IMG/VR virus record: IMGVR_UViG_3300028832_000102
Span: 64,015-128,014 of that record
DNA length: 64,000 nt
Reading direction: 5' to 3' (one strand)
Origin: a virus
Taxonomy: Duplodnaviria > Caudoviricetes
Part shown: piece by piece, positions 3,643 through 62,409 of the stretch
Layout of the letters: each line of letters begins with the position of its first letter
How positions within the stretch are numbered: position 1 is the first letter of the stretch
Made by a program: the position numbers and the translations under genes
Notes under the pieces: model-generated
Databases searched by the model: none
The model's input: the letters and a program-made list of their open reading frames with translations, nothing else
Told to the model about the DNA's origin: nothing

Positions 3643-3678
3643 TGCCCTTGATACCACGCTTTTTATTACGTATTTTCG
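3643..3678 (+). promoter_or_regulatory. Putative late promoter (TGCCCTTG-N20-TATTTTCG)
   Basis: Same motif and spacing as five other sites; upstream of the 3697-ACP-TMP-GT run. Confidence 0.7.
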
Positions 3679-8100: not shown

Positions 8101-11100
8101 GCAGAACTCTTAGCCAAGGAGAAAGAACTGTCTGATGCCGAGAAGGAACTGGAGACCGCACAGAAGAATGCGGAGAATCAGCAGAAGAAAACGACCAAGG
8201 CGGTCGAGGACGCCGAGGCGGCTGTAACCAAAGCTGACGAAGCAGACAAGAAGCACGTCGAGACAATGGATAAGCTGGCCGACGAGCAGCAGCAGCACAA
8301 GAAGGATCTGCAAGAACTGAACGAAGCCAACAAGGATACTATCGCCACTAACGAAAAGAATCAGCAGTTGTTGGCCGAGACCAACAACAAGATCCTGGAA
8401 CAGGGCGAGAAGATACGTGACGCCGAGCGTATCAAGGCTCAGGCAAAGACCGAGGGTATCGAAAAGACAGAAAAAGCTATCCGTCTGTTGAAAGAGGAGA
8501 ACGACCGTATCGACCAGAACAGCTTCACATGGAAGCGCAACACCATCGAGATTCAGCATCTGCAGGAAGCACTCGACGAGATGAAGGGTAAGCCCGCCCT
8601 GATGATGATGGAGCAAAGGATGAAGAACGTCGGTTCCCTCTCCAACACAGCCTTCGAGGAGACAAAGAAGTTCTGGCAGGCCATGTACGACGGTGCTGAT
8701 AAAGGCAGCGACAAACTGAAAGAGGCCGAGGAACACTTGAAGAAGATAGCAGAGGAAGAGGCAGCGAGGGTACGTGTGAAGGGTGCCGAAGCCATATCGT
8801 TCTTCAACGACAAGAACGTCTTTAGTGGGGTGGATTCAGAAGGCAATCAGATATTCAAGACCAAGGCAGAGGCGGCTAGTGCCGCTGAAACCGCTGAGCA
8901 GGTGAAGGCACTACAGGTCTACCGCGACCTGCTGCCCAAGGACACCGACGCCGCCACTATCGAGAGCATCAACAAGATACTGGAAGAACAGACGCGCATA
9001 GCCAAGGAGCTGACCGGCGAATGGATGTCCTACGACGACGCCGTGGAGCTGGCTAGCAAGGCTGGTGGCGAGGGATTCATTGCCACCACGCAGCAGATGC
9101 AGCAGGCTGTGCAGGCTATGGAACGCCAGCGCGACGAACTGATTAAGACCATTCAACTGAAGCAGAAGGACGGCAAGGCTACTGCCGATGAGCAGGCACA
9201 GCTCGAAAAGCTGGAGAAGGAGCTGAAGGACTTGAAGTTCGAGCAGGACAACTTCAACATGAGTCACGACAAAATGAAGCGCCTGTTGAAGGAACCTACC
9301 AGAGCCGACAACCTGGACGAACTGAAAGCGGCCATCAAGCGTGCCGACGGCGAGCTGCACCGCATGGGGCAGACCATGGACAAGAACAACAAGGAGTACA
9401 AGGAGTTTGCCGAGCAGGTGCGCAACGCCAAGAACATGCTGAAGGAGATGGAGGGGCAGGCCAAGGCCAGCGCCACGGCATGGGAGAAGGCATGGAGCCG
9501 CTTGAAGACCTATGTAGTGATGTACATGGGCTTTAACGCCGTATGGAAAAAGTTCATGGGCACCGCAGACGACCTGATGCAGCTCTCCGACAAGATGGGC
9601 GAGGTACGCAAGACGACGGGATTCTCTGCTGATGAAGTAGGAAGGTTGAGTGATAACCTGAAGAAACTCGACGTACGCACTCCTTTGACACAGCTCCTAG
9701 AGATTAGTGCCAAGGCCGGTCAGCTGGGTTTGAAGAGCGAGCAGGACGTGATGGGCTTCACGGAGGCTGCAAACAAGCTGATGATTGCCCTGCCTGAAAT
9801 GGGAGCCGAGGCCGCCACGGAAATGATGAAGGTGGCCATCGCAACAGGTGAGGTGAAGAAGATTCAGGATCAGCTGAACCAAGGACTGATTGAAGGCTCG
9901 TCAGCTACGGAGGTAGCTCTGGAGAAGGTAGGTTCAACCATTGACCAGTTGCGTGCCAACAGTGCCGCTGCTGCTCCGCAGATTACGGACTTTGTGAAGC
10001 GTGTTGGTGCCGTGGGTGCTCAGAGCGGCATCACGATTGATCAGGTGGCTGCACTGGGTGCTACGGTGGACGCTATCGGTCTGCGTGTAGAGATGTCGGC
10101 TACGGCTCTGTCTCGTATGATACCTGCTATCCGCAATAACGCATTTGATGTGGCCAAGGCTATCGGTATGGCACCTAACGCTCTGCGTGAGATGTTTGAC
10201 AAGGCAGGTGGCGGCATGGAGGCTATGCTGGCCATATTCCAGCATATCAAGGATGCTGGGTTGGATCCTGATTCAATTGAAAAGTTACTGGGCATGGGCG
10301 GCATGCAGGATGTAATGAAGCAGTTGAACCAACAGGGTGCCCGTGCGGGTATTGTGTTTGCCGGACTATCACAAAACGTGGACGAACTGCGCAAGAACCT
10401 GGGTGTGGCTCACGAGGCTTACGAGGACAATATCGCTATCCTGCAGGAGTATAATAAGATGAACGATACAACTGCTGCAAAATGGGATCGTTTCAAAAAC
10501 AAACTTGAAGAGTTCTTTGTGGGTGATCGCACACAGCGTTGGCTCGGCGGGCTTATTACAGGAATGCGTACTGTTCTTGATCTACTTACAGGTAGCAATG
10601 GATGGGCTGCGGCTTTTAGAACCATTGTACTGTATCTTGGCGTTGTGAAACTCAATATTGCAGGAGTCCTCTCTGGCGTAAAAAATATAAGCGTCAGCCT
10701 GAAAGGTATTGCAATGACTATAGGACTTATTGACAAAGAAACAAAAAAACTGGCATGGGGCAATATCTTTACGGCTGCTGCGGCGGCAGTACTGTGGCTA
10801 TGGGTGGAGCTAACCGACCTGAAATCTGCAGTTGATAAAGCCAACGAAGCTCTTGGAAAAACCAAGGAGGAGACAGACCGTGTAATAGATCGGTTTGAAG
10901 GATACTGGGCGAAATTAAAGAGTACCAACGAGGCTTTAGTTCAGGCTAAAGCCAGTCACGAAAAGTTGTCTGCAGAGGTTGATAAACTACGAAAGAGCAC
11001 TGATGGTTCTGCGGAATCTACGGCGAAGCTAAAGGAAAAGGAAGACGAACTTACAAAGAGCGAGGACAGCGTGACTCGCGCAAGTAACGACCATAAGTCG

Positions 11101-15419: not shown

Positions 15420-17801
15420 ATGCGAAGTATTGATTTAGTAATCCCAATGGTTTTTCCTGATGACGAGAAGTGGCAGAAGGAATATGCGAGAATGAACGGA
15501 AACGTTGTCACGGTGCAGAGGAACGTGAGGTTCCGTTCGTGGGGAACGGAAGAACTTCTTATGGAATGTTGTTTGAAGTTCATGCCGTGGTTGAGACGCA
15601 TTCATATCCTACTGGCGTCTGAATCGCAGGTAAGGCCGTGGATGGCTCGTTTCACGGAACGCCATGAGGAGGATAGTGTTGAAGTAAGGGTGGTATTCCA
15701 CCGAGACTTCATGCCATGGGAGCTGCTGCCTTGCTTCAACATTAACACGATAGAGATGTTCCTGCACAGGATACCGGAGCTGGCGGAGCAGTTTGTCTAT
15801 AGCAACGACGACTTCTACCCGTTGTCGCCGCTGGTGCCTGAGGATTTCTTCAGCGATGGTCTGCCATGCCAGCATCATGAAGAGAATCCTTACCCTGCGT
15901 CGCCCAACACGTTCCAGAAGTTTGTCAAGAACGGACTGGACATGGTTGCTGCGGACTTTGGCAGACGGTTTCGGAATACATGGCTGCGTGGGGGACACTC
16001 GATGCAGCCGATGTTACGATCCACGGTAGAGGAGGTCTGCGAGCGACATCACGACCGTATTGCGGAGTCTTTCTCCTTCAGCAGGAACAAGAAGAACTTT
16101 AATCAGTATATTTTCCCCTTCTACCAGCATCTTTCGGGTAAATACGTGGACCATGTTCCTGCAAGTCAATATGTAGGTCCAAGAACACCAACTTCGCAAA
16201 TAACCGCTATTCTTCGAAATCCTGCGTGTGGGATTGTTTGCATCAACGACAATTCTGCCATTGACGACTGGAAGACGAGAGCCGATATTGTAAAAAGGGA
16301 AATCACAAAGAAACTGAGCGAGGGGAAGAAAGAAATAGTTACTGAGGCTCGACATAATTATAAAAATAAAAAAGCTATGGAAGTACTAATCATTCACTAC
16401 AACACACCGGAGCTGACGGCAGCTGCGGTCAGGTCGCTGCTAAAGCAGACACCGGAAGCAAGAGTTACGCTGTTTGACAATAGCGACAAGAGACCATGGG
16501 TCAACCAGGAGGATTTAAAGGAAAGCGTGGAGGTCATCGACAATACGAAGGGACAAATCGTGGATTGGGACGAGTGGCTGGCGACGTTTCCCGACAAAAA
16601 GAATACCACGGCAAACAACTGGGCGAGTGCCAAGCACTGCTATTCAGTGGAGTTGTGTATGGACAGGTTTCTTGATGGTTTCATCTTGATGGACAGCGAT
16701 GTGCTCGTAAAGAAAGACATTTCTGGTCTGGTGGACAAGGGGTGTGCTTTCGTGGGAGAGGAGTGTGCCGGAACGAAGAAGTTCCCTGTGCCGAGAGTAC
16801 TCCCGATGCTGTGCTGGATCAACACGCCGATGCTGAAGGAGGCGGGCATACGCTACTATAATGCGGAAAAGATGTGGAAGCTGACATCCAAGGCTCCAAA
16901 CTGCTACTACGACACTGGCGCGTGGTTACTGGAGGCGGTAAGGGAAGCAGGACTTAACTGCCGTAATATCTCTTTTAAGGACTACATTCTGCATTATGGA
17001 CACGGGTCGTGGCGCAACCGGCAGAAGACGGCAGGGACATGGCTTGAGGAGAACCGCAGCTTGTGGTGCCAGAAAAAGGCTAACGACAACGTGCGTATTT
17101 ACGTATGTACGCATACGGACTTCAAGCAGGTGGTTAAAGACCATGTCTATGAGGTGGTAGATGCAAGACAGTGGAACGGGGATGTTTGTGACAACGGGCT
17201 GCGCGGTTCGTTCTATTCGGAACTGATTTCCTATAAACATATTGCCGAGAGAAAGGACTTGCCTGAGTTGGTGGGATTCTGTTGCTACAGGAAGTATTTC
17301 TCTTTTATGGATGACGTGCCCGACTTTTCGGAGGTATTCGGAGAGTATGACGCAGTGGCAGCAACGCCAATCCGTGTGCTCCCTGACGTGGCAGGGCAAT
17401 ATGCGCATTGCCACAACAAACGGGATCTTGCCATCGTGACGGACATTGTGAAAAGAGACTATCCGGAGATGTGGCCTTCGTTCTCGAGAAGCCTGAGACA
17501 ACCATCACTCTATGCTTGCAACATGTTTATCGTGCGCAGGGAGGATTTCCGATGGATGATACAGACGGTCTTTGATATACTTGACAAGTACCTGGAGACG
17601 GTGGGCATGGATATTGAGGGACGCATTGAGTCTAACCCGAGGGAATACCATATCGGAAGACCAAGAACGGGTGTCGTGGCCTACCAGTACCGCATAGGCG
17701 GATTTCTGGGCGAGCGTATCATCAATGCCTTGCTGAGATTCCGTTTCCAGCACATTAAGCATTACGATAAGGTCATAACGCAACAATCTATAGGTATTTA
17801 A
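15420..17801 (+). CDS. Three-domain glycosyltransferase: Stealth-family + GT-A (GT2-like) + DUF4422-like
   Basis: Stealth: IDLVIPMV, RFRSWG, FNINTIE, FVYSNDDFY, CINDN. GT-A: IIHYNTPEL..FDNS..LMDSDV. DUF4422-like: IYVCTH, FYSEL, VGFCCYRKYF, CNMFI, GFLGERI. Confidence 0.8.
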   Translation: MRSIDLVIPMVFPDDEKWQKEYARMNGNVVTVQRNVRFRSWGTEELLMECCLKFMPWLRRIHILLASESQVRPWMARFTERHEEDSVEVRVVFHRDFMPWELLPCFNINTIEMFLHRIPELAEQFVYSNDDFYPLSPLVPEDFFSDGLPCQHHEENPYPASPNTFQKFVKNGLDMVAADFGRRFRNTWLRGGHSMQPMLRSTVEEVCERHHDRIAESFSFSRNKKNFNQYIFPFYQHLSGKYVDHVPASQYVGPRTPTSQITAILRNPACGIVCINDNSAIDDWKTRADIVKREITKKLSEGKKEIVTEARHNYKNKKAMEVLIIHYNTPELTAAAVRSLLKQTPEARVTLFDNSDKRPWVNQEDLKESVEVIDNTKGQIVDWDEWLATFPDKKNTTANNWASAKHCYSVELCMDRFLDGFILMDSDVLVKKDISGLVDKGCAFVGEECAGTKKFPVPRVLPMLCWINTPMLKEAGIRYYNAEKMWKLTSKAPNCYYDTGAWLLEAVREAGLNCRNISFKDYILHYGHGSWRNRQKTAGTWLEENRSLWCQKKANDNVRIYVCTHTDFKQVVKDHVYEVVDARQWNGDVCDNGLRGSFYSELISYKHIAERKDLPELVGFCCYRKYFSFMDDVPDFSEVFGEYDAVAATPIRVLPDVAGQYAHCHNKRDLAIVTDIVKRDYPEMWPSFSRSLRQPSLYACNMFIVRREDFRWMIQTVFDILDKYLETVGMDIEGRIESNPREYHIGRPRTGVVAYQYRIGGFLGERIINALLRFRFQHIKHYDKVITQQSIGI

Positions 17802-17804
17802 GCC

Positions 17805-18614
17805 ATGAGAATAACACTATGTGCCATCGGAAGGATGGAGAACAGGTATGCCAGGGAATGGGTGGACTATCATCTGTCTATCGGGTTCGATCACATATAC
17901 ATTTGCGACAACAACAGAGTCGGGGAGGAACACTTCGAGGAGGTGATTGGTGATTATGTGAAGGAGGGTAGGGTGACTATTCTTAACTTCAGGAATATGG
18001 AACGTGTGCAGATTCGGGCTTACAACAAGTGCTATGCCTTATACGGTGGCACGTGTGACTGGATGGCGTTTCTTGACTTTGACGAGTATCTCGTAACATC
18101 AAAACCTCTTCAGGAGTTTCTTACGGGACGAGAAGGAATGGACTGTGTACTTGTTAACTGGAGAGTGATGACTGACAGCGGTCTTGTGAGTTACGACGCG
18201 CGTCCTGTGCGCGAACGGTTCACGGTGCCTCTGGATAATCATGTCTTGATGCGCGGAAAGCATCGCTACAACGACCATGTCAAGAGTATTGTGCGGGGTG
18301 GATTGGGGGTTAACACTGTTTTTGATAATTCTATGCACGTTCCGAAGATGGGAATACGCTGTTGTACAGCCAACGGCAACACTGCAACTCATTCTCCTTT
18401 CCATCCATGCGATCACAGCATAGCGCGGATAGACCATTACACAACAAAGACTCTGGAGGAGTGGCTGACAGTTAAGATGGTTCGTGGACTTGGACAGTCG
18501 GATTCTGACCGGTGGCGGCAGAAAATAGCTATCAAGCAGTTTTTCGAGATAAATAGCCATTCTCCAGAGAAGGATAAGATGGTGGCTGAATGGGCTGCCG
18601 ATGACTGCCCTTGA
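17805..18614 (+). CDS. Glycosyltransferase (GT92 / GT2_4-like)
   Basis: ENRYAREWVDYHLSIGFDHIYICDNN, WMAFLDFDEY (DxD), KSIVR, IDHYTTKT. Confidence 0.85.
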   Translation: MRITLCAIGRMENRYAREWVDYHLSIGFDHIYICDNNRVGEEHFEEVIGDYVKEGRVTILNFRNMERVQIRAYNKCYALYGGTCDWMAFLDFDEYLVTSKPLQEFLTGREGMDCVLVNWRVMTDSGLVSYDARPVRERFTVPLDNHVLMRGKHRYNDHVKSIVRGGLGVNTVFDNSMHVPKMGIRCCTANGNTATHSPFHPCDHSIARIDHYTTKTLEEWLTVKMVRGLGQSDSDRWRQKIAIKQFFEINSHSPEKDKMVAEWAADDCP

Positions 18615-18641
18615 CCTGTACAGGAGGAAATCGTATATTGA
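18606..18641 (+). promoter_or_regulatory. Putative late promoter (TGCCCTTG-N20-TATATTGA)
   Basis: Motif with 20-nt spacer just upstream of ATG 18657. Confidence 0.7.
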
Positions 18642-18656
18642 GGAAAAAATGATATC

Positions 18657-19838
18657 ATGCTTATCACCAATAGTAGCGAAATAGAGTTTTTGATGCCAAC
18701 GGCCAGGTGGGAAGATCCTCACCAGCTTTTCGGTTATCTGGAAGAGGAGGAGATGGTAGTCTTGGAACCTCTTCTGGGAGAAGCCTTGTATCAGTTTGTG
18801 GTGTCTGAGTACGATCGTCTTCGACAGGAATACTGGGATATAACAAAGGTTATGGGAGGTGGCGACGGGAAAATTTTGACTTCGAGCAATGAACACACCG
18901 ACGTAACCGAGGAGCAGGACAGAATCAACGCGGGGAATTACGTGAGGAGCAATTCTCGCACTCAAGTGAACGAGGAGGCGGTGGATGAGAAAGACTATAA
19001 GACCATTCAGCTTATCCGTATCTGCCAGCGCATTGAGTTCTACAAGATGCTTTCACACAAGGCGGGACTGCTGACCGTGAGTTTCAATGCGGGCGGTGGC
19101 ATGAACGTAGTGAGCGCTGACGGCTATGAGCCTGCCAGCGACAAGGATCGCGAGGAAGCACGTAAGGACGCTTTCATGAGTGCAGGACGGGCGGTGGACA
19201 GTCTGCTGTTGTTCCTGGAATCGGATGCTAAAGGTGAAAAGCTGTTTACCGAACTCTGGCAGCAAGCGGATGCTTTCTATTTGCACAAGGATCTGCTGTT
19301 CCAAACGGCTCACGTACTGAACCAGTTCCTCGACATCAACAACGAGCGATGGGCATACGTCAAACTGGTGCGTGACATCCGCTTCTGCCAGAACACCTAC
19401 CTAAAGCCTCGTATCGGCAACAAACTACTGCTGGCGGTGGTGGAGAGTCTGAATGGACAGAGCACTCAGGATACTCAGATTTTTACGGAGTTAGCCAACA
19501 TGCTCCGCACCGCGCTGGCTTTCTATGTGGAGAGCCGCCGACAGGATCTGGCTCCTGCTCGCGAGAAGTTGGCACGCAGGGACTCGATGACGGATGCGCA
19601 GCAGGCCATGGCAATGGCATGTGCTTATATCGAAGATAACCTGGATGAACTGGGCGAGGCGGCTGTGGGTTCTCCTATATATAACGCGGTGCGTGCGCGA
19701 GAGCGGCAGGAGGAGTATGACCGCAAGCATCAGGAGGAGGCACAGGAACGCCGGCGCATGGTGGCCTGTCAGCAGCAGCACAAGAAACTGTTTACGGCGT
19801 TCCCACACACCACCAGACAAGTGGATGTAAAGGACTGA
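18657..19838 (+). CDS. Putative head-tail adaptor-like structural protein
   Basis: 393 aa with an internal duplication (LEPLLGEALY / LKPRIGNKLL); lies next to the protease and capsid genes. Confidence 0.5.
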   Translation: MLITNSSEIEFLMPTARWEDPHQLFGYLEEEEMVVLEPLLGEALYQFVVSEYDRLRQEYWDITKVMGGGDGKILTSSNEHTDVTEEQDRINAGNYVRSNSRTQVNEEAVDEKDYKTIQLIRICQRIEFYKMLSHKAGLLTVSFNAGGGMNVVSADGYEPASDKDREEARKDAFMSAGRAVDSLLLFLESDAKGEKLFTELWQQADAFYLHKDLLFQTAHVLNQFLDINNERWAYVKLVRDIRFCQNTYLKPRIGNKLLLAVVESLNGQSTQDTQIFTELANMLRTALAFYVESRRQDLAPAREKLARRDSMTDAQQAMAMACAYIEDNLDELGEAAVGSPIYNAVRARERQEEYDRKHQEEAQERRRMVACQQQHKKLFTAFPHTTRQVDVKD

Positions 19839-19890
19839 AAGAAGGCAAAGAAGAGGGAGTAAAGGGAATAATGACAATGGCTCGAATATC

Positions 19891-19926
19891 TGCCCTTGAT
19901 GCAGCAGGCGCCCCTTCGTATATTTG
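19891..19926 (+). promoter_or_regulatory. Putative late promoter (TGCCCTTG-N20-TATATTTG) for protease-capsid
   Basis: Perfect Bacteroidota -7 box TAnnTTTG 20 nt after TGCCCTTG. Confidence 0.75.
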
Positions 19927-19959
19927 CAGTAAAGACACAAACACAAAAACGTAAAAGAT

Positions 19960-21813
<1,854 letters not shown>

Positions 21814-21886
21814 AGAATGGCCATTGAGAACTTAACAACACAACAACAGTAAACATAGTATTCACCCATTAAACAACACAAACATT

Positions 21887-23161
21887 ATGGCTTACGCACT
21901 TAGTATTACTGACATTCAAACTGTCAAACAGCAAATCGAGCCTGAGTTGGTGGCCAAGGCTTACCTGCTCGATGACGCTATGTTCGGAGACCTTGGTATT
22001 AAGGTGACAACAGACGTTGAGAATATCGACGTATGCTACATCTTCAACCGTAAGGGTCTTGTAGCACGCCCCTACACAGTAGGTAACGTGAAGAGCAAAC
22101 AGATTGCCAAGATCGTGGACAATCCCGCAAAGGTTGAGGACTACTACGTGAAGACGGAAGATAGTATCAACCGCTATCGCGAGAAGGGCCCATTCAACGC
22201 CGTTGACGGCTCTGGTGAGTCTGAGATGACTCAGAAGAACCTGAACGAGATTGCAGGCCGCGCTGGTGAGGACGTTCGTTTCAACGTTTTCTTCGGAAAC
22301 AAGGCTAACCGCTCTCTCGAGGAAACTCCTGAAAACGAGGTTAAGTTGGGTACTGCTTTGTTTGACGGTGTTTACACCATCATCGCCAAGAAGCGTACCG
22401 ACGGTACTATCTCTACACAGAACAAGAACCTGATTATCACTGGCGATATTGCCGGTAAGACTCCTCAGCAGGTCTATGAGATCCTGACAACCTTCTACGG
22501 TGGCTTGCACCCCGCTATGAAGAAGCCCGAGCAGGAAATCTACATCCTGGCTTCTGACGAGTTCTGCCGCAAGGCTGTGAAGGGTTACATGCTGACTTTC
22601 CCACAGATTGCACCTCAGGTGCTACAGGCAGGCTGGAAGTTTGCGGAGATGCCTAACGTGCTGCTGAAGACTTCTTCGGCTATGGGTCAGGGCGGACAGC
22701 TCGTTGCCAGCGTTAAGGATAACATCGAGTTTATCTGCGACGTTCGCGAGGGTAAGTCTCAGATCCGTATCGGTCAGACCAACGAGGACCTCTCTATCCT
22801 GGGCTTCCAGATTAACGGTGCCGCTACCATGCGTATCCGTGACTACGACCCAATGGTATTCGCCTGCAACGACGCAGTGAACACCATCGACGCTACTCCA
22901 GGTTCATACACCTCTGACATCTTCACCGCTACCAGCAGCGATGCAGCAGAGGGCAGTGTGACCATCATCAGTGGTCAGAAGGATTTGTACCAGGACGGCG
23001 ACATTATCACCATCAAGGCAGAGCCTGAGGATGGCTATAAGTTCGTTGGCTGGAGCAACAAGGCGACTGCTAACCCACTGAACTACACATTCGGCGGCGG
23101 CGTTGTCAACCTGAAGGCAATGTTCGAGGAGGAAGGTGGAGATTCTTCTTCATCTGAATAG
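21887..23161 (+). CDS. Major capsid protein with C-terminal InlB-B-repeat/Ig-like domain
   Basis: Follows protease-scaffold; strongly biased codons; LFDG motif; C-terminal GSVTI..Y..GD.ITIKAEPEDGYKFVGWS..NP..YT..LKAMFE. Confidence 0.75.
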   Translation: MAYALSITDIQTVKQQIEPELVAKAYLLDDAMFGDLGIKVTTDVENIDVCYIFNRKGLVARPYTVGNVKSKQIAKIVDNPAKVEDYYVKTEDSINRYREKGPFNAVDGSGESEMTQKNLNEIAGRAGEDVRFNVFFGNKANRSLEETPENEVKLGTALFDGVYTIIAKKRTDGTISTQNKNLIITGDIAGKTPQQVYEILTTFYGGLHPAMKKPEQEIYILASDEFCRKAVKGYMLTFPQIAPQVLQAGWKFAEMPNVLLKTSSAMGQGGQLVASVKDNIEFICDVREGKSQIRIGQTNEDLSILGFQINGAATMRIRDYDPMVFACNDAVNTIDATPGSYTSDIFTATSSDAAEGSVTIISGQKDLYQDGDIITIKAEPEDGYKFVGWSNKATANPLNYTFGGGVVNLKAMFEEEGGDSSSSE

Positions 23162-23164
23162 CCC

Positions 23165-23223
23165 ATCGGAGGTGAGCGGGGTGAGTAGCGATAATCGCCA
23201 AAGCCCTGCCCTCTGATTTTTTT
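23165..23223 (+). terminator. Hairpin/terminator after capsid gene
   Basis: ATCGGAGG...CCTCTGAT stem followed by a T tract. Confidence 0.5.
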
Positions 23224-23262
23224 CATTGAAATTCACAACACAAACAAAAAAACTTTAATATT

Positions 23263-23865
23263 ATGGCTTGCATTCTGAAAAACGTAGTCGCATCTGCGGC
23301 TAATTGTAAGGAGAACCCCGCTGGTCTTAGCAACTACTGTATGGTTGTTCCCCTTGACACTGACCACATTTCCAGCATCGGCGTACACGATGGTAAAAAC
23401 CAGTATGTCATTACACCTGCAGGTGAAGGACAGGGACTTAAAGGTTTCCGTATTGACTTCAAGACGCAGACCGGACAGGTAACGTCTGAGGACAATGGTG
23501 CCGGTAAGGGCTGGACACATACAGGTACTGGTCGCGTGGAGAAGAACGAGGACGACATGGCATACGTAAGTCGTATTCTCAGCAACATGGACGGTAAGTA
23601 TCTCGTGTTCTTCCCAACGGGTAACATTACCTCTGACGGTATGGAGTGGAAGGTCGTTGGTAATCCAACAGGTGACACTGAGTTCTCGACTGCTGCAGAC
23701 AGTGGTGCTGCTCGCGGCGACGACCATGGCACTACCTTTACCGTAACCTGCTCATATCAGCTTTACGATGTTATGAAGTGGTTCGGAGCCATCGACAAGG
23801 ACGACGATCCTTCTTCTTCGGATCTGGCTGATGACACAAGTGATTCTATCACCATCACCGACTAA
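23263..23865 (+). CDS. Putative major tail (tube) or other abundant structural protein
   Basis: 200 aa, beta-rich, NCKENPAGL N-terminus, downstream of capsid; acidic Ser/Thr/Asp C-tail. Confidence 0.55.
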   Translation: MACILKNVVASAANCKENPAGLSNYCMVVPLDTDHISSIGVHDGKNQYVITPAGEGQGLKGFRIDFKTQTGQVTSEDNGAGKGWTHTGTGRVEKNEDDMAYVSRILSNMDGKYLVFFPTGNITSDGMEWKVVGNPTGDTEFSTAADSGAARGDDHGTTFTVTCSYQLYDVMKWFGAIDKDDDPSSSDLADDTSDSITITD

Positions 23866-25005: not shown

Positions 25006-25041
25006 ACAACTTAATGTTTTCAGAGGTTACAGTCAAGGGCA
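25006..25041 (-). promoter_or_regulatory. Putative late promoter (TGCCCTTG-N20-TAAGTTGT)
   Basis: CAAGGGCA at 25034-25041 with 20-nt spacer. Confidence 0.65.
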
Positions 25042-61587: not shown

Positions 61588-62409
61588 ATGAGTACAAGAG
61601 CAATTATCAGAATCAAGGAGAAAAACGACGTAAGGTACGTCTATCATCAGTGTGACGGCTATCCTGAATATGTAGGTGCCGACCTTCAAAGGATGCTCAG
61701 CAAGAAGAAACGCTGGAGCGCAAAGACAATAGACAAGGAGTTAATAAGAGGCATCGTCCATGTCTATGAGGATGGTGTGAAACACATCGACGACAATTAT
61801 CAAGCCGTGGATGGCATGTGCGGATGGGAGGATTATGGCTACGAGATTGACTGCGACAATCGGACGCTCATAGGCTATTATTTCGGAGCGAAGAATATGC
61901 CAAATAGTCCGCTGGAGGATTGGAGCGAGTGTGAAAAGGTACGACCAGGCGAAGCCCACCGCGACGACGAGGATATCAATGAAGTGCTGGCCGAGCGCGA
62001 GCTGATAGACATCTGCACACGCATCCGACTGAAAGATGCGGAGAGTATCGGCCCTGCACCGCTGCCAAAGCCTGTCACCAAGATATACCCGCTATTCGGT
62101 CGAGGCGACTGCGGACGGGCATGGGGCGAAACAATGAAACCAAGTGAGCCGTTGCAGTCGTGGAGCGACCTGCTGTGCTATGTCCGCGACAACATTTGGC
62201 TGTCTATTTGGCAAGGCAGTCAAATCAGTCTTTCTGACGATGACATGGATAAACTCTGCTTTATTTGGATAACCATTCAGGCAAACGGAACAGCGAAAAT
62301 GGACATTGATTACAGCGGTGTGGTAGGTCGGGCAGGTCGCATTCCAAAGGATAAGCTATGGGCTGTTCGTGATTCTGAAAACATCTTTTCACCAGAGCCA
62401 AGCGAATAA
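61588..62409 (+). CDS. Hypothetical phage protein (MSTRA..Y.H.DGYP..VG type)
   Basis: 273-aa ORF with a recognisable phage N-terminal motif. Confidence 0.65.
   Translation: MSTRAIIRIKEKNDVRYVYHQCDGYPEYVGADLQRMLSKKKRWSAKTIDKELIRGIVHVYEDGVKHIDDNYQAVDGMCGWEDYGYEIDCDNRTLIGYYFGAKNMPNSPLEDWSECEKVRPGEAHRDDEDINEVLAERELIDICTRIRLKDAESIGPAPLPKPVTKIYPLFGRGDCGRAWGETMKPSEPLQSWSDLLCYVRDNIWLSIWQGSQISLSDDDMDKLCFIWITIQANGTAKMDIDYSGVVGRAGRIPKDKLWAVRDSENIFSPEPSE

Follow-up and report, generated by a model that had tools for sequence, protein, structure and literature searches.

Two genes for putative sugar-transferring enzymes lie between the tape-measure gene and the head genes of a large phage, and the locus raises the question of what these enzymes act upon. 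It was analyzed in a stretch of 64,000 nucleotides (hereafter the window), which is the second half of IMG/VR record IMGVR_UViG_3300028832_000102 (128,014 bp, rated complete by CheckV). According to the original prediction, made from the letters of this stretch, the two glycosyltransferase (GT) genes, here called GT1 and GT2, serve to coat the virion with a (phospho)glycan carried by Ser-rich tails of capsid and tail proteins. Our analysis supports this proposal, through the co-occurrence of tag and enzyme among relatives, the structural assignment of the two tagged proteins, the solubility of the enzymes and the apparent position of their genes in a late operon. We estimate a probability of roughly 0.75 that the phage encodes a virion glycosylation system, in which soluble enzymes modify the Ser-rich C-termini of two virion proteins, namely the capsid protein and, probably, the tail-tube protein. 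The open reading frames (ORFs) of GT1 and GT2 and the tails are exactly as had been described. The features on which the argument turns are listed below (window positions, strand, content; aa, amino acids).

15420-17801, +: GT1, 793 aa, with Stealth, GT-A-like and DUF4422 domains
15420-16319, +: predicted Stealth hexose-1-phosphate transferase domain of GT1, aa 1-300, conserved regions (CR) 1 to 4, CR1-CR4 (Pfam, CpsY profile alignment)
16368-17075, +: GT-A-like (GT2/GT8-like) domain of GT1, aa 317-552, DSD motif (motifs, structure neighbours)
17097-17609, +: DUF4422 (GT111-type) domain of GT1, aa 560-730 (PF14393)
17805-18614, +: GT2, 269 aa, GT92/Glyco_tranf_2_4
21887-23161, +: major capsid protein, 424 aa, HK97 fold
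23126-23158, +: acidic Ser-rich tag EEEGGDSSSSE of the capsid protein, proposed acceptor site (disorder, co-occurrence)
23263-23865, +: tail-tube-fold protein, 200 aa (fold search)
23794-23862, +: C-terminal tail of the tube protein, DKDDDPSSSDLADDTSDSITITD, proposed second acceptor (PSSS)

Ser-rich C-termini and the Stealth gene occur together

Relatives of the phage were collected via the capsid protein (IMG/VR, JGI/ENA metagenomes and GTDB genomes) and via homologues of GT2 and of the Stealth domain; a search for related loci with full-length GT1 as a single query found none. A capsid C-terminus was considered Ser-rich when at least three Ser were present in its last 12 residues. This was the case in 29 of 29 Stealth-positive loci and in 0 of 31 loci free of GT genes (60 loci of known state), and the same association was observed at the level of unique capsids (20 vs. 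23 sequences). On a tree of the capsid core, calculated from the body of the protein with the tail columns removed, the state of the GT cassette changes at least seven times, and the tag changes along with it each time. The tree yields seven independent pairs, all of them concordant (two-sided sign test, p = 0.016). Earlier and smaller samples had given 3/3 (p = 0.25) and then 4/4 concordant pairs (p = 0.125), both with IMG/VR loci only and underpowered, and later 6/6, and the test reached significance only after Stealth-anchored and genome loci were added. A missing correlation between GT genes and Ser tails was among the outcomes held to speak against virion glycosylation from the outset; in this sample the correlation is perfect, across loci and across the seven contrasts.

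In the tube protein, a tail with an SS dipeptide was found in 23 of 27 Stealth-positive loci and in 0 of 29 GT-free loci. Phages that share the same long tube tail have P-[ST]-S-S in it if the cassette is present, and PESAA or DGTFT if it is absent. GT-free capsids stop right after the immunoglobulin-like (Ig-like) domain (...FEAE, ...FETA, ...FEEE) or continue with an extra domain of about 45 residues that ends in GKTYYTKG. No homologue of GT1 or GT2 was found anywhere in eight complete relatives that lack both Ser tags and cassette.

Downstream of the tape-measure gene, the next gene in the majority of relatives is a conserved one for a 393-aa protein (g393), with gaps of 64-475 bp, and in others the cassette lies at this junction. 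In this phage, as in the majority of Stealth-positive relatives, the Stealth gene is directly 3' of the tape-measure gene. Every cassette includes a Stealth homologue, and a GT-A module is usual, while a GT92-like, a DUF4422 or a phosphoribosyltransferase (PRTase)-like protein is variably present. The Stealth, GT-A and DUF4422 domains are fused in this phage and in L019, L056 and L109; L024 has Stealth, GT92 and GT-A in a single ORF of 806 aa, and L014-L017 have Stealth and GT92 plus GT-A as separate genes. Some Ser-tagged capsid genes were on short contigs of metagenome-assembled genomes (MAGs), and the Stealth gene was on another contig of the same bin in two of three such bins; a fourth MAG has both on the same contig. 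L020 has a Ser-tagged capsid and no cassette on its contig, and its record is 32% complete.

The PRTase-like protein, of about 290-300 aa, stands beside Stealth in many relatives where this phage has DUF4422 (L014:11491-12396, L005:4667-5524, L118:10992-11864, L123:12575-13462); its match to PF00156 is weak (E 1e-4 to 4e-3). The junction between the tape-measure gene and g393 holds other cargo in L007 (L007:1969-6383), L075 and L076, namely proteins of 1092 and 370 aa with no Pfam match, the larger of which has a homologue elsewhere in L026. Given this non-GT cargo, the junction behaves as a variable cargo site.

A relative with Stealth as its only recognized GT module

G021 is a complete genome of 101.7 kb with direct terminal repeats. 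Its Stealth gene, of 305 aa, overlaps the stop of the tape-measure gene and is followed by genes on the opposite strand, at about 45 kb from the capsid gene. The genome contains no homologue of the other GT modules and gives no match to the GT2, GT2_4 or GT1-family models. Both tails are nonetheless tagged, the capsid ending in ...TASTSSKQH and the tube protein in ...AAESSSSQK. Since the tags are present despite the distance, the association does not depend on linkage to the capsid gene. Stealth seems to suffice by itself and would thus be the core enzyme; we therefore propose that it either modifies the tag directly or initiates the chain.

GT1 contains a Stealth domain with conserved catalytic residues

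The Stealth_CR2 model (PF11380), which covers the best conserved region of the family (~100 residues), matches GT1 with 78.4 bits (cut-off 39.4) and all seven of seven phage homologues (best E 1e-26). A profile of these seven homologues aligns with residues 2-280 of Mycobacterium tuberculosis CpsY (8j2n) at E 2e-23, and also matches the catalytic domains of GNPTAB. Residues E112, N129, D131 and R222, together with C274, D277 and the N that follows, are invariant in the seven homologues. E112, N129 and D131 fall on E105, N122 and D124 of the CpsY chain (E305, N322 and D324) in a direct phmmer alignment, and R222, the Arg of CR3, falls on chain R219 in the profile alignment, which is R419 in full-length numbering (PMC10668966). 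Mutation of each of these four CpsY residues cripples the enzyme (PMC10668966).

The regions CR1 (IDVVYTF or similar) and CR4 (CLND/CIND) have been defined previously (PMC1285062). The tetrapeptide CIND of GT1 (C274-I-N-D277) corresponds to CR4 and is aligned with CLND of CpsY. CR1 is divergent: the Pfam CR1 model matches one of the seven phage homologues, at E 0.14. The start of GT1, M-R-S-IDLVIPMVF, in which I4 and D5 are invariant, is aligned by the profile with DIDMVFSWV at the start of CpsY. As judged from these alignments, aa 1-300 of GT1 is a complete Stealth domain with conserved catalytic residues. Phage Stealth proteins are either minimal, at about 300 aa, or joined to further GT domains; their clade comprises 267 close homologues, all metagenomic.

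The other sugar-transfer domains and their solubility

Three of the four sugar-transfer domains that had been proposed, i.e. Stealth, DUF4422 and that of GT2, score above the curated Pfam cut-offs; the fourth, of the GT-A type, stands less firmly, on motifs and ESM-Atlas neighbours. In this region of GT1 (aa ~317-552) the motifs HYNTP, FDNSD and MDSDV are invariant in six homologues, and Pfam gives weak GT8/GT2 matches; a profile of the domain had no significant match among PDB sequences. Its ESM-Atlas neighbours in structure and features include viral clusters annotated as family GT2 (TM-score 0.75) and GT8 (TM-score 0.67), and others in which a GT-A-like module is fused to GT92, DUF4422 or TOD1_MUCI70. 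We therefore assign a GT-A-like glycosyltransferase domain to this region with moderate confidence.

DUF4422 (PF14393) matches GT1 with 68.7 bits against a cut-off of 25 (E 8.8e-19), and the match of this domain to the PDB sequence of WbbM (6u4b) is weak (E 1e-3). The sole characterized member of family GT111 is the uridine diphosphate (UDP)-galactofuranose transferase domain of WbbM (PMC12269835). UDP-galactopyranose mutase (GLF, PF03275) was not found in the phage genome, so that a UDP-galactofuranose donor would have to come from the host. GT2 matches Glyco_transf_92 (PF01697; 53.4 bits, cut-off 23, E 3.6e-14) and Glyco_tranf_2_4 (PF13704; 44.4 bits, cut-off 27.5, E 2.4e-11), and its homologues in the cassettes of relatives, 44-50% identical, are fused to a GT-A domain.

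A scan with a 19-aa Kyte-Doolittle window revealed no segment resembling a transmembrane helix in either protein, the maxima being 1.07 (GT1) and 0.62 (GT2) as compared to 1.96 in the transmembrane control. This bears out the earlier remark that neither enzyme shows an obvious membrane segment or signal peptide.

The proposed substrates are a capsid protein and a tail-tube-fold protein

The 424-aa ORF ends in ...MFEEEGGDSSSSE. Its AlphaFold2 (AF2) model, built from a 47-sequence alignment, is of moderate quality (predicted local distance difference test, pLDDT, 63). In a VIA search of this model against PDB representatives, the top 50 matches were all HK97-fold capsids or encapsulins (Z 12.3-7.8, aa ~1-331); a profile of the protein had no match among PDB sequences. 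The HK97 body (aa ~1-335) is followed at aa 347-415 by a Flg_new_2 (InlB B-repeat) Ig-like domain (Pfam E 6.5e-9), and a protease/scaffold gene (phrog_53) lies upstream. The last seven residues (aa 418-424) have pLDDT below 50 and are predicted to be disordered. According to the model, an HK97-fold capsid body is followed by a surface Ig-like domain and then by the tag, in agreement with the earlier identification of this protein as the capsid; the surface domain may be likened to those of phi29-type proteins, a lead only.

The 200-aa ORF ends in ...DDPSSSDLADDTSDSITITD. Nearly all of the top 50 VIA matches of its AF2 model (pLDDT 73.7) are tail-tube, Hcp or tube-like proteins, the best being 80alpha, monocin MttP and SPP1 gp17.1 (Z 7.7-7.5), and Foldseek gave no match at E<=0.001. 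The protein is 51-77% identical across relatives. The earlier tail-tube call is thus upheld by fold only (Z up to 7.7); this conservation and the position next to the capsid gene suggest that it is probably the polymerizing tube subunit.

The extra domain of about 45 residues that is often present in GT-free capsids (TPTYTAV...GWYEK...GKTYYTKG; L002:10001-11407, L006, L008, L010, L026, L028) sits behind a PEPT, GGN or SG repeat linker and was never seen together with a Ser tag. Outside the window, a 106-aa ORF (G000:C1:4170-4490, -) ends in ...YPSDDSSDDSSE, and the adjoining 1735-aa ORF (G000:C1:4511-9718, -) has runs of six and four Ser near residue 287. It is possible that these two proteins, perhaps fibre proteins, are further substrates of the same system.

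Proposed mechanism

We propose that, late in infection, soluble cytoplasmic enzymes would be made from an operon shared with the tape-measure gene. Their targets would be the C-terminal tags, acidic, rich in Ser and disordered, of the major capsid protein and, probably, the tail-tube protein. The core enzyme would be Stealth, predicted to be a UDP-hexose:acceptor hexose-1-phosphate transferase that would release UMP. As the likeliest chemistry, the tag would receive a sugar-1-phosphate, either directly on the Ser hydroxyl (Ser-O-P-sugar) or in the first step toward a short phosphoglycan, which the GT-A, DUF4422/GT111 and GT92-like domains would extend or vary, with an accessory set that differs between phage lineages. 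What we infer is that the tags are the substrates, as well as the sequence of the reactions, the nature of the sugar and how the phage profits; candidate benefits are particle stability, protease resistance and anti-adhesion in the rumen. To direct transfer to the Ser hydroxyls of both tags we give somewhat less than an even chance.

Several points weigh against virion glycosylation of this kind. The definition of the Ser tag is our own and was chosen after the first loci had been seen. For metagenome loci, the GT-free state refers to the junction between the tape-measure gene and g393 only, and the Stealth gene of G021 lies elsewhere; moreover, the capsid tree of the final test comes from a 'quick' tree search. 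Four Stealth-positive loci have no SS in the tube tail, and, taken by itself, the tube protein gives no significant result in the independent-pairs test. Ser-Gly linkers are also present inside the capsids of the GT-free phages L007, L073, L075 and L086. Finally, the characterized Stealth enzymes use sugar acceptors and not protein Ser (PMC7729866, PMC10668966), so that direct phosphoglycosylation of Ser is something that we infer.

Alternative explanations

The cassette might instead modify an envelope glycan of the host, such as capsule, lipopolysaccharide or another polysaccharide, in order to block superinfection or to prevent progeny from adsorbing again to lysed cells, the Ser tags being unrelated acidic tails. 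The main known context of Stealth, GT92-like and DUF4422/GT111 enzymes is indeed the synthesis of capsules and O-antigens (PMC1285062, PMC12269835), and CpsY, the nearest relative of known structure, bears the annotation exopolysaccharide phosphotransferase. We consider this explanation unlikely, as it leaves unexplained the association of capsid tag and cassette over 60 loci and seven contrasts. In addition, GT1 and GT2 have no membrane segment, in contrast to the membrane-associated enzymes of capsule and O-antigen systems, and their genes sit in a late structural operon. No flippase, polymerase, ABC exporter or initiating phosphoglycosyl transferase was noticed near the cassette, where no dedicated search for them was run. 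For the lone Stealth of G021, a host glycan that is already present could serve as acceptor, but there would then be no cause for the enzyme to follow the tags.

Equally improbable, in our view, is a hitch-hiking module without any enzyme-substrate relation to the tags, or a module that in reality acts on a different virion protein, for instance the tape measure. What favours it is the short distance between cassette and capsid gene, usually just 3-5 kb, and the close coupling of Stealth with the tape-measure gene in most of the loci that contain Stealth, even in G021. In that genome, however, the tags persist with Stealth at a distance from the capsid gene; furthermore, the tag switches with the cassette among closely related capsid bodies and occurs on two different proteins. 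The tape-measure protein of this phage was inspected as a candidate substrate and rejected, considering that its sequence contains no SSS run.

The domain families of the cassette are, to our knowledge, not those of known DNA glycosyltransferases. Glycosylation of hypermodified bases in the phage DNA as a protection against restriction, a reaction that many phage glycosyltransferases carry out (PMC12619734), is very improbable here, since it gives no explanation of the tag association and the 128-kb genome has no thymidylate-synthase-like hydroxymethylase detectable with the PF00303 query.

Relation to known systems

We know of virion glycosylation being documented only for a few actinobacteriophages, and literature searches returned nothing on phage-encoded Stealth enzymes or on glycosylation of the particles of Bacteroidota phages. 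In the mycobacteriophages Che8, Corndog and Myrna (Freeman et al. 2023, Cell Host Microbe 31:1216, as cited in PMC12619734 and PMC11256854), glycans made by phage-encoded glycosyltransferases are located at the C-termini of capsid and tail-tube proteins. Compared with that system, the present one would likewise combine soluble phage-encoded glycosyltransferases with short terminal tags, here predicted from the genes. It differs in the host, which would be a rumen member of the Bacteroidota instead of the Actinobacteria, in the position of the cassette directly behind the tape-measure gene, and in its conserved core, a Stealth hexose-1-phosphate transferase, for which the predicted linkage has a phosphodiester. 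By analogy, this would be the same strategy in another host phylum, with another core enzyme and another predicted linkage.

With the Stealth family (CpsY, Neisseria meningitidis SacB/XcbA, animal GNPTAB; PMC1285062, PMC10668966) the phage domain shares the four conserved regions and the key residues of CpsY. The acceptors of known members are capsule chains, glucan and the mannose of N-glycans, whereas the proposed phage acceptor is a cytoplasmic protein tag. In protists, N-acetylglucosamine-1-phosphate-Ser (GlcNAc-1-P-Ser) and fucose-1-phosphate-Ser (Fuc-1-P-Ser) in Dictyostelium, and mannose-1-phosphate-Ser (Man-1-P-Ser) in Leishmania, occur in Ser-rich stretches (references listed in PMC1285062); Sperisen et al. 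tied these sugar-1-P-Ser structures to Stealth-encoding protists (PMC1285062). A sugar-1-phosphate on serines of Ser-rich stretches is what we propose for the phage as well, with the difference that the protist system is eukaryotic, belongs to the secretory pathway and has enzymes not firmly assigned to Stealth, whereas the phage reaction would take place in the bacterial cytoplasm on virion substrates. The GT111 domain at the N-terminus of WbbM has its counterpart in aa 560-730 of GT1, which match DUF4422 well over the cut-off; the sequence match to WbbM is weak, and the domain is replaced by the PRTase-like protein in many relatives.

The combination of phage enzymes with C-terminal capsid and tube tags would extend the logic of the actinobacteriophages to large phages of rumen Bacteroidota. 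Tag and enzyme were gained or lost together seven times independently, an unusually clean comparative signal, which therefore defines a concrete and testable enzyme-substrate pair, i.e. a soluble Stealth protein of about 300 aa and an acidic Ser tag of 8-12 residues. If the proposal is right, the known acceptor range of Stealth enzymes would be wider, and a portable tag-and-enzyme system would be available for the glyco-engineering of phage particles. Direct transfer to Ser, if it takes place, would be a case of protein phosphoglycosylation in the bacterial cytoplasm and the first protein-serine acceptor assigned to the Stealth family; it would imply a phosphodiester-linked glycan coat on a virus particle, which accessory GT modules would diversify between lineages.

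The late operon and the neighbouring genes

The remaining features of this part of the window are the following.

1-993, +: terminase C-terminus
after the terminase C-terminus, +: small membrane protein, before the portal candidate
after the small membrane protein, +: portal candidate, 649 aa
3643-3676, +: late-type promoter motif heading g176, the ACP-like gene, g201, the tape-measure-like gene, GT1 and GT2
between portal candidate and ACP-like gene, +: g176, 176 aa
4232-4513, +: acyl-carrier-like (ACP-like) gene, 93 aa
between ACP-like gene and tape-measure-like ORF, +: g201, 201 aa
5161-15384, +: tape-measure-like giant ORF, 3407 aa (PF10145 PhageMin_Tail)
18606-18639, +: late promoter motif, the copy after that at 3643, which overlaps the GT2 end and heads g393
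directly after GT2, +: g393, conserved, 393 aa
19960-21813, +: protease/scaffold fusion (phrog_53)

Exact copies of the motif TGCCCTTG-N20-TAnnTT number six in the window, as compared to 0.31 expected; they lie at 1520, 3643, 18606 and 19891 (+) and at 25041 and 58670 (-), and each precedes a gene of the same orientation. One further copy, which differs at a single position, is at 61602 (-). Terminator-like hairpins are not in excess over shuffled sequences (20 vs. 19.6), including the stretch from the 3643 motif to GT2, in line with the earlier statement that no terminator is evident there. On the basis of the promoter copies at 3643, 18606 and 19891 and of this lack of terminator excess, GT1 and GT2 seem to close a late operon headed by the 3643 motif.

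PF10145 (PhageMin_Tail) lies inside the 3407-aa ORF at 9658-10257 of the window, over the cut-off (E 6e-14), and is also present in its homologues according to precomputed Pfam annotation; 'tape measure' is therefore a fair name for this protein, as had been assumed. It has 3407 aa here, as compared to 2300-3100 aa in relatives, and by the usual rule relating tape-measure length to tail length the tail would measure roughly half a micrometre. The ACP-like gene matches PF00550 (E 1.6e-10) and, below cut-offs, the NCBIfam acyl carrier protein, and has a DSI phosphopantetheine-site motif. It was rejected as a part of the glycosylation system, being not found in five complete or near-complete relatives, with and without cassette. 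The region had no megablast match among GenBank phages, and none of GT1, GT2, the capsid protein and the tube protein had a match in PHROGs.

Host and lifestyle

Nine relatives are binned in rumen MAGs (Bacteroidaceae, Prevotellaceae, Prevotella, Bacteroidales) from sheep, goat and water buffalo. Binning is no proof of a host, but this is consistent with the Bacteroidota host originally assumed, here of the Prevotella type. The antibody-shield role proposed for virion glycans of mycobacteriophages has no obvious fit in the rumen; stability, protease resistance and less sticking to non-host material would be more plausible roles, although this is speculative.

Two relatives bear on lifestyle. 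L120, a contig of 69 kb from GCA_963623795.1, has a 536-aa Stealth fusion directly after the tape-measure gene and encodes ParA-like and Rep3-like proteins, which are hints of a plasmid-like lifestyle. In the Stealth-positive locus L118, a gene for a tyrosine integrase (L118:20129-20984) is located two genes downstream of the tube-fold gene, and some members of the group may thus be temperate.

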